Under the pieces are notes generated by a model, which worked only from the letters and a program-made list of their open reading frames with translations, had not been told where the DNA came from and did not search any database. 64,000 nt of DNA from positions 35,351 to 99,350 of the IMG/VR virus record IMGVR_UViG_3300048995_000010, one strand, 5' to 3'. The translations under genes were made by a program, and so were the position numbers. Positions 44,285-45,290 of this stretch are shown in pieces (position 1 is the first letter of the stretch; every line of letters starts with the position of its first letter). The DNA is from a virus (Duplodnaviria > Caudoviricetes).

Positions 44285-45290
44285 TTACCTCAAGTGGAGG
44301 ATAGGGATGCAAGTTCCCTTGCCGGATGCTGACCGGCCATGTGGGTAGTCCCAGTCCTGGCCCACAAAGTAGTCTCCTCCCCGGAGTGAGCACGTTAGGC
44401 AAAATCAATAAGACCTATACTCTCTGTGCTGGGCTTCTCAGACTACTCTCCCACCAAGCCAGAAATGAGCGAGGTGGGAGCCGATGGTAGCCTTCCATCA
44501 AAGAGGGGTCTTTGACCCTGAAATCAAAAAGGTGTTCCCGATGTGCCTTGACTGGCTATTCGGGAGCTAGGGACTATTGTAAGACAAGACAATAGCTCAA
44601 CAAAAGTAGAGTACCGTCCCAAATGGAGCAGAAACTTCCAAACCAGACTGTCTTTAACATGTAAACTCTCCGATAAAAAGAGAGTGTGCTTATAGCAGAT
44701 GTGACAGTCACCGAAGCCCGGCTGAAATAGTTCCGGGGTTACAGAGTGTGTAGGAGGGAGGTTCTTCCCCGGTGTGAGATGAGCCTCTATCCGGGGGCAT
44801 ATGGCCAGTTGAGAATCTAAATAACGTTTGGGATGGCTCAGGACGCAACTTCACAGTAAGTAAAATAGTCGGATGATGTTCCTTCTGTGATGCCGCAGGT
44901 TCAACTCCTGCACTGGTCTCAAAAGGGGTTCGACTCCCCGTTGTAATCTCGTACAGATGAGGTATTCTGACGGGAGGAGTACCACATAACGGTAGAACGT
45001 GAAAGTCCGTAGTGGTTGAAAGTCATAGCGGTGGTAAAAGACCCACGCAGGAGACGTACACTGCGTCCTCACTAAGGGTGAAACCTTAGTGGGGAACGAG
45101 TATTTCTGCTTCATGAAGTGAGTAGTAGATCAAAACAGGCAACGTCTTTCCTGCTTTCCAACTACTCATAAGTCCCGGCCATATCCCCACACCAATGGGT
45201 TCAGCCGCCGAAGAGGGATGATCTGAGATATAAGGTGACTCTCAGGATTCCCAGAGTGAGGTGGTACTCTATCTGGGAGCTGTTTTTCTT
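44285..45290 (+). ncRNA. Large (~1 kb) ornate ncRNA, GOLLD/raiA-like
   Basis: No plus-strand ORF; dense GC-rich hairpins; long-range pairings; GTGGTTGAAAGTC..AAAAGACCCACG core; adjacent to tRNAs. Confidence 0.65.

Follow-up and report, generated by a model that had tools for sequence, protein, structure and literature searches.

A putative strain-specific tRNA-like cassette at a module junction of a mosaic non-coding RNA locus in an environmental phage lineage

The locus and its gene setting

The window, a stretch of 64,000 nucleotides, is part of a 99,350-bp IMG/VR virus record. It includes a 1.4-kb stretch without any gene-size ORF, which lies between a RyR/T7-gp5.9-like gene (43783-44280) and a group of small ORFs that lead on to the genes for UDG and PolA. 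The upstream ORF combines a RyR domain with a domain like T7 gp5.9, a RecBCD inhibitor. The non-coding locus itself has a size of about 1 kb (44281-45300), and its features are collected in Table 1. Between position 44280 and a hairpin followed by a T-run at 45248-45300 no terminator-like site was found, and this last hairpin with its T-run is likely the terminator of the locus. Scans for promoters gave no enrichment of the Bacteroidota -7 motif and chance-level matches for sigma-70.

Table 1. Features of the non-coding locus, with positions in the window unless a relative is named
Feature	Position	Strand	Remarks
ORF-free modular non-coding RNA locus	44281-45300	+	From the RyR/gp5.9-like gene to a hairpin, then T-run
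Shared block	44296-44371		L164, L165, L166, L170, L186; 100% over 52 nt with L166
Shared block	44444-44488		L164, L165, L166, L186
AAGYCAGAAAUGAR hairpin family	44444-44488; L165 4626 and 5332; L171 6553; L164 6796; L166 6035		
UGU/UAU hairpin, copy 1	44535-44566	+	In 16-copy alignment
Shared block	44569-44615		L165, L166, L171
Proposed outer helix, 5' strand (CGGGGTTACAG)	44734-44744	+	Complement of 44941-44951
Shared block	44766-44798		L163, L184, L186, L170
UGU/UAU hairpin, copy 2 (block D)	44766-44797	+	GGGGGC closer
Window-specific stretch	44799-44921	+	ATAT + cassette + TCA; single G in its place in L163, L184
Inner tRNA-like cassette	44803-44919	+	7-bp acceptor, 85-nt non-tRNA body, T-arm 1, discriminator U44919
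Module E	44922-45103	+	T-arm 2 and conserved core; GGGGAAC closer
Shared block	44922-45064		L163, L184 (92-93%); core only with L168
T-arm 2	44924-44940	+	Opens module E; stem of 4 G-C pairs and A.G, loop TTCGACT
Proposed outer helix, 3' strand (TTGTAATCTCG)	44941-44951	+	Complement of 44734-44744
Shared block	45171-45289		L171
GGCCATAT, alternative partner of ATATGGCC	45177-45184	+	P = 0.85 in 1-kb fold
UGU/UAU hairpin, copy 3, then T-run	45248-45279	+	Homologous in L164, L171
Insert-bearing tRNA matches	L168 4940-5040, 6156-6258, 6268-6424		Rfam tRNA model

Relatives and the mosaic organisation

The GenBank phage collection holds no DNA homologue of 44281-45694, and peptide scans of IMG/VR with UDG and PolA found nothing. 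Motif scans of IMG/VR for the exact tandem T-arm, the module-E core, the UGU/UAU hairpin and the B-type hairpin loop gave 0 matches each; of two metagenome scans one gave 0 matches and the other 12 unrelated chance matches, and a genome scan gave 2 chance matches only. A set of 42 loci reached via the RyR-domain protein was rejected, being neither syntenic nor in possession of an RNA homologue. The relatives used here were found via PolA homologues in a large protein collection; they are contigs of JGI and Logan assemblies, syntenic and 97-110 kb long. Their PolA identity to the window is 87% for L163, 77% for L164 and 61-68% for L165-L171, while L184-L186 come from the same 90% protein cluster. 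Compared with crAss-like phages the identity of PolA is only about 24-25%, and the lineage consists of environmental, distantly crAss-like phages of 97-110 kb.

An ORF-free gap of 0.8-2.3 kb is found at the same place in all relatives, and in L163, L164, L165, L184 and L186 a RyR/gp5.9-like ORF also stands directly upstream of the RNA locus. Blocks of the window's gap are common to different relatives, sometimes in another order (Table 1). The 5' block (44296-44371) is, on sequence comparison, strongly constrained. It heads the locus in L164 and L165 too, and the PolA of L166 is only 66% identical.

Hairpin families and the class of the host RNA

A recurrent building block of the locus is a hairpin in which a UGU/UAU internal loop separates a 7-bp stem from a 12-nt apical hairpin, the loop of which is often GNRA-like. 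Where it is found (window, L163-L171 and L186) there are one to three copies per locus, on the + strand only and only in non-coding gaps. An alignment of 16 copies shows 96.9% of cells paired and changes on both sides in 8 of the 10 pairs, a level that none of 500 shuffles matched; one pair, for example, is C-G in the window, U.G in L186 and U-A in L163. This strong covariation in a recurrent hairpin means that the locus encodes a real structured RNA, and the hairpin is not in Rfam. A minimum-free-energy fold of 44745-44802 was set aside since it contradicts the hairpin supported by covariation. A second hairpin family has the conserved loop AAGYCAGAAAUGAR, covarying CCCNNN/NNNGGG stems and a GGGAGC closer. 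Hairpins of a further kind share a CUGUGUCUACAG centre (window 43464-43489 and 45314-45337; L163 7177-7200; L165 6143-6165 and 6305-6330), T-runs follow several of them, and they look like a terminator family specific to the lineage.

Closers of the GGGRRC type are about 7-fold more frequent on the + strand of the gaps than in coding DNA (3.7 versus 0.5 per kb). Both of the indels that could be mapped, which are described below, sit at such closers, so recombination between closers would be a plausible route for the exchange of modules. Taken from the alignments, the host RNA is a lineage-specific mosaic of GGGRRC-closed hairpins, interspersed with tRNAs and tRNA-like cassettes. We put about even confidence in the view that these modules fold independently and are gained, lost and reshuffled between related phages, as part of the explanation preferred below.

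The sequence-only reading had mentioned that some GOLLD RNAs embed tRNAs. The host RNA here is not of the GOLLD type; a search with all Rfam families at E ≤ 10 gave neither GOLLD nor any other match in the locus, apart from two upstream tRNAs. GOLLD, in which tRNAs are located in an internal linker (Kretsch et al. 2025, PMC12286853), is still the closest known system; run against the entire 99-kb genome, its covariance model (RF02032) stays without a match at E ≤ 10. In both cases a large non-coding RNA locus of a phage adjoins a tRNA island and contains embedded tRNAs or tRNA-like units. In contrast to GOLLD, the window locus is without the conserved 3' domain, has a reshuffled mosaic as its interior, and its embedded unit is not a decoding tRNA. 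The ROOL model (RF03087) likewise has no match at E ≤ 10 in the whole genome, a result for which the control genomes, being without ROOL, provide no positive control.

These results also bear on a reading in which the T-arms are tertiary-contact modules (T-loops) of one large globular RNA similar to GOLLD or ROOL, possibly multimeric, that is never processed. The conserved 5' block together with the conserved terminal hairpin and its T-run suggests one transcript, several apical loops are GNRA-like, and the locus adjoins tRNA genes, as GOLLD and ROOL do (PMC12286853). However, interior modules that are present, absent or reordered among close relatives are hard to reconcile with one fixed tertiary fold, and with neither model giving a match this reading is rather improbable.

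The inner tRNA-like cassette

Direct reading of the sequence found every element that the sequence-only reading had named, each in its place. The inner acceptor is made of GGCCAGT (44803-44809) and ACTGGTC (44912-44918), which form 7 bp including one G.U. T-arm 1 (GCAGG-TTCAACT-CCTGC, 44895-44911) does have five Watson-Crick pairs and a canonical T-loop, and the interior of 85 nt (44810-44894) is indeed not that of a tRNA. In all the cassette is 117 nt long. Compared with a tRNA, it has the 7-bp acceptor that runs directly into a T-stem of 5 bp with its 7-nt T-loop (T54, C56, A58, G53-C61), and has neither a D-arm with G18 G19 nor a 5-bp anticodon stem with a 7-nt loop. In the predicted fold of its interior, a weak 4-bp stem closes a 23-nt loop, and an irregular hairpin of about 12 bp carries a 21-nt loop.

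Standard tRNA searches pass the cassette by. At E ≤ 10 the Rfam tRNA model (RF00005, threshold 29 bits) gives nothing for it, whether 44725-44960 or 42500-47500 is searched, whereas the two upstream tRNAs score 42-47 bits. ARAGORN calls no tRNA or tmRNA anywhere in the gap; Rfam likewise gives no tmRNA match, and the wobble pair of the acceptor is G2.U71 and not G3.U70. A tRNA-Sec-like reading, with T-arm 1 taken as the anticodon arm, was dropped for its E of 3.9 and its poor acceptor. No homologue of the cassette was found anywhere, and its own fold therefore has no covariation support. The number of T-arm motifs is above chance, with 3 in the 1.4-kb gap against 0.087 expected, and none of 2000 shuffles reached 3. 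Taken by itself, the inner 7-bp acceptor has P = 0.28.

What sets the cassette apart is its distribution. L163 and L184 derive from two different samples, and in both of them 44799-44921 is replaced by one G and the flanks are kept: window 44766-44798 corresponds to L163 6880-6912, and window 44922-45064 to L163 6914-7057. Since these two segments are adjacent there but for the one G, 44799-44921 is a precise indel. Its ends lie at most 4 nt from those of the inner acceptor. The indel is the strongest evidence that the inner module is a real, discrete unit. In the window the cassette begins 4 nt 3' of the GGGGGC closer of a UGU/UAU hairpin and ends 3 nt 5' of a conserved T-loop hairpin. The idea that the module is separable cargo is supported by these genomes, in which the cassette is exactly missing with both flanks retained; because L163 and L184 do without it, it would be cargo and not an essential part of the host RNA. 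It appears to be strain-specific, present in one phage only at a junction of hairpin modules, and may have been inserted here or lost in L163 and L184. The comparison amounts to a natural experiment, in which near-isogenic phages differ by one tRNA-like cassette.

The second T-arm and the proposed outer helix

A second T-arm had been proposed six nucleotides further on. It is there, behind TCAAAA, as GGGG-TTCGACT-CCCC (44925-44939), with a mismatch as its fifth pair (A44924.G44940). The arm is kept in L163 and L184, where a G-C pair has become G.U, and is missing from L186 and L168; a competing pairing joins 44933-44943 to 44968-44980. It stands at the start of module E, the core of which consists of an ACCAC/GUGGU helix, a GGUGG/CCCAC hairpin and a GCAG/CUGC hairpin. 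Module E is 92% identical to L163 over 144 nt, compared with 76% for the adjacent protein gene, and its GGUGG/CCCAC hairpin shows compensatory changes. In L186 the L163-type counterpart of the module (about 236 nt) is deleted between GGGRGCGAG repeats, with the junction between the direct repeats GGGGCGAG and GGGAGCGAG, so that L163 and L186 differ by exactly one T-loop module. L168 retains the core without the T-arm. From these comparisons, T-arm 2 is the head of an independent, conserved module. With differences of a single cassette and a single module, it becomes directly testable whether such units are cargo or structural elements.

The sequence-only reading went further and let an outer acceptor enclose the inner module. 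Half of this stands: TTGTAATCTCG and CGGGGTTACAG do form 11 contiguous pairs, four of them G.U, whereas the enclosing module finds no support in the comparison. The two strands sit in modules that are gained and lost independently, the 3' strand in the module deleted in L186 and the 5' strand in a non-homologous block. The latter lies upstream of the block shared with L163 and has no homologous counterpart there. Within L163 the 3' strand would pair best with another segment (6724-6739), at an energy that is not significant. One A-U to G-C exchange (44741/44944) would fit the helix if ATTGCG at L163 6734-6739 is taken as the 5' strand; a single exchange is too little to count as support. Two competing local pairings of 44941-44951 agree with the few substitutions equally well; a local hairpin that the 3' strand can form joins 44946-44952 to 44957-44963. 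Held against a tRNA, the outer module has a T-stem of four pairs plus the A.G mismatch, and an 11-bp helix instead of a 7-bp acceptor. The outer acceptor is probably a pairing that is specific to the window or fortuitous.

Folding gives a divided answer. The chance probability of an 11-bp helix that abuts the end of T-stem 2 is P = 0.010, and the energy of the outer duplex (-13.7 kcal/mol) is equalled by 10-28% of shuffled upstream sequences. The z-scores are 0.03 for 44720-44965, -1.40 for the inner module and -0.07 for the interior. Folded in contexts of up to 290 nt, the RNA takes the nested form as its minimum-free-energy structure, at pair probabilities of about 0.5-0.99; in the fold of the whole 1-kb RNA the nested form has a probability of 0, and the pairing of ATATGGCC with GGCCATAT wins. 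With z-scores so unremarkable and a nested fold that depends on context, thermodynamics alone decides nothing.

A true nested double tRNA-like architecture would have the outer helix and T-arm 2 stacked into a clamp around the hairpin and the inner cassette, which could hold the halves of the host RNA together after excision or display two tRNA elbows. Such a design is consistent with the significant abutment of the helix on T-stem 2, with the prominence of the fold in local contexts, which resemble those during transcription, with the one possible compensatory change between the window and L163, and with a comparable clamp predicted in L165 beside a T-arm at 5686. It has to contend with an ordinary duplex energy, with rival local pairings of the 3' strand, and with the mismatch in T-stem 2 and the silence of the Rfam tRNA model. 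In L163, moreover, the equivalent helix is predicted at a probability of 0, its candidate 5' strand being taken up by a local pairing, and L186 has the L163-type upstream region yet neither T-arm 2 nor the 3' strand. On balance such a clamp seems unlikely. The nested look would arise because the cassette landed beside a T-loop hairpin, and not from a conserved double-tRNA design; nesting is thus probably a by-product of the modular build.

The pairing of ATATGGCC (44799-44806) with GGCCATAT had been put forward as a switch that gates the inner acceptor, and the complementarity is real and reaches P = 0.85 over 8 bp in the 1-kb thermodynamic fold, to the exclusion of the acceptor; but a switch is highly improbable, as the homologous block of L171 has GGCTAAAT in place of GGCCATAT, ATATGGCC exists only in the window and is absent in relatives without the cassette, an 8-nt complement within 1.4 kb is unremarkable, and folds of 1-kb RNAs are unreliable.

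Other tRNA-like units in the lineage

Nearly every T-arm motif in the gaps of the lineage has a matching 7-bp acceptor. L165 has a tRNA-Phe (4931-5003) within the gap, about 32 nt 3' of a UGU/UAU hairpin, and the gaps of L169 and L171 hold tRNA-like units as well. In L168 there are three full-length matches to the Rfam tRNA model, with insertions of 36, 38 and 97 nt in the anticodon arm, and a further full-length match, in L163, has a very long variable region (5654-5764). The units of L168 and this one of L163 look like natural tRNA-scaffolded RNAs. The window itself has a further unit of its own at 45343-45487, with 10-bp paired ends, a T-arm at 45461 and z = -2.09, for which no homologue was found in any relative.

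The tRNA genes of the lineage have no encoded CCA. In L163-L170, and at 43577 in the window, many of the 3' flanks read CGA and not CCA after the discriminator (...A-CGA, ...G-CGA), and this CGA may be a signal for 3' processing. Genes for a CCA-adding enzyme, RtcB or Ro60 were not found in the phage, and maturation would therefore depend on host enzymes.

It is worth considering whether such units are anything more than remnants of tRNA genes, functionless and decaying, in which an eroded and rearranged tRNA island has left orphan T-arms and ends that pair by chance. The cassette occurs in one genome only, its interior has no structure signal, and aberrant tRNAs are abundant in the lineage. 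Orphan T-arms behind tRNAs are also common in viral contigs: a generic tandem T-arm pattern, with two T-arm cores 10-26 nt apart, occurs in more than 119 IMG/VR loci (L044-L162), none of which is related to the window RNA and the enclosing stems of which are at chance level. Against decay, no pair is lost in T-arm 1 (5 of 5 Watson-Crick pairs) or in the acceptor (7 of 7), yet the whole interior is 85 nt of other sequence, and intact ends around a replaced interior are not what uniform decay predicts. The conservation of T-arm 2 and module E, well above that of the neighbouring gene, argues in the same direction, as do the well-formed tRNA frames around large inserts in relatives. Plain decay is thus an improbable account of the cassette. 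Of 82 tandem T-arm loci that were inspected, about 35 show a normal tRNA whose end directly follows the first T-arm, with an orphan T-arm behind it; L058, L061, L108, L115 and L119-L121 form a conserved subfamily.

Possible processing and comparison with known systems

The explanation that we prefer, with about as much confidence as doubt, is that of a strain-specific tRNA-like cassette at a module junction of a mosaic non-coding RNA locus, which would be excised from a precursor by host enzymes. Transcription would yield one precursor from the locus that follows the RyR/gp5.9-like gene. The cassette would be cut by host RNase P on its 5' side, before G44803, and by RNase Z or a similar enzyme on its 3' side, past U44919, in the manner of the lineage's tRNA genes, which lack CCA; the two cuts would release a stable RNA of about 117 nt and split the precursor. 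In 1987 McClain, Guerrier-Takada and Altman reportedly showed that bacterial RNase P needs no more than an acceptor/T-arm minihelix as its substrate. In sequence the cassette fits a minihelix substrate for this enzyme and for RNase Z, with its 7+5 bp stack, U at -1, G at +1 and U73. Excision is disfavoured by the cassette's lack of a canonical D-arm elbow, which RNase P normally reads, and by the whole-RNA fold, which favours ATATGGCC with GGCCATAT over the acceptor.

A broader proposal, which is tentative and in our view clearly less probable than its opposite, is that in these phages the acceptor/T-arm minihelix serves as a portable tRNA scaffold of natural origin. After maturation by RNase P and RNase Z it would carry diverse non-tRNA RNAs (the 85-nt body here, inserts of 36-97 nt in relatives), and such cassettes would be swapped between genomes at GGGRRC junctions, with the outer 11-bp helix joining the halves of the host RNA after excision. 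An engineered counterpart, the tRNA scaffold for RNA expression, is said to have been introduced by Ponchon and Dardel in 2007. Like it, the units described here have an acceptor/T-arm frame bearing foreign RNA for the anticodon arm, as the relatives do with their inserts; unlike it they are not man-made, and the cassette of the window is without a canonical D-arm.

Several natural RNAs invite comparison. The tRNA cluster of phage T4 includes the stable RNAs species 1 and 2 (rnaC and rnaD), small non-tRNA RNAs with paired ends that are co-transcribed with tRNAs. They are similar as small RNAs with paired ends matched to the tRNA-processing machinery, although in the window processing is only proposed, and they are free-standing in a tRNA operon whereas the window has a cassette between hairpin modules; a relation in sequence is not expected. 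The mascRNA / MEN-beta family (RF01684) has a tRNA-like fold within a long non-coding RNA, from which RNase P and RNase Z release it as proposed for the cassette, but it is eukaryotic; on the window its model gives a 15-nt T-arm match only (E = 9.5), which does not amount to membership. In tmRNA an acceptor and T-arm likewise surround a non-tRNA interior, whereas the cassette is without G3:U70 and, at 117 nt, too short for pseudoknots.

If the cassette is processed as proposed, phage non-coding RNA would come under the principle of tRNA punctuation and of mascRNA. More noteworthy than the cassette itself are the modular host RNA and its recurrent hairpin: the locus is an unrecorded, strongly covarying modular RNA, and a possible source of natural parts for RNA scaffolds.

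Genomes of the lineage also contain mobile elements. A LAGLIDADG endonuclease ORF interrupts the PolA gene of L171 (10001-13142), and L165 has a group I intron at the GIY-YIG/UDG genes (8716-9012; Rfam, 80 bits), from which it follows that mobile introns are active in the lineage.
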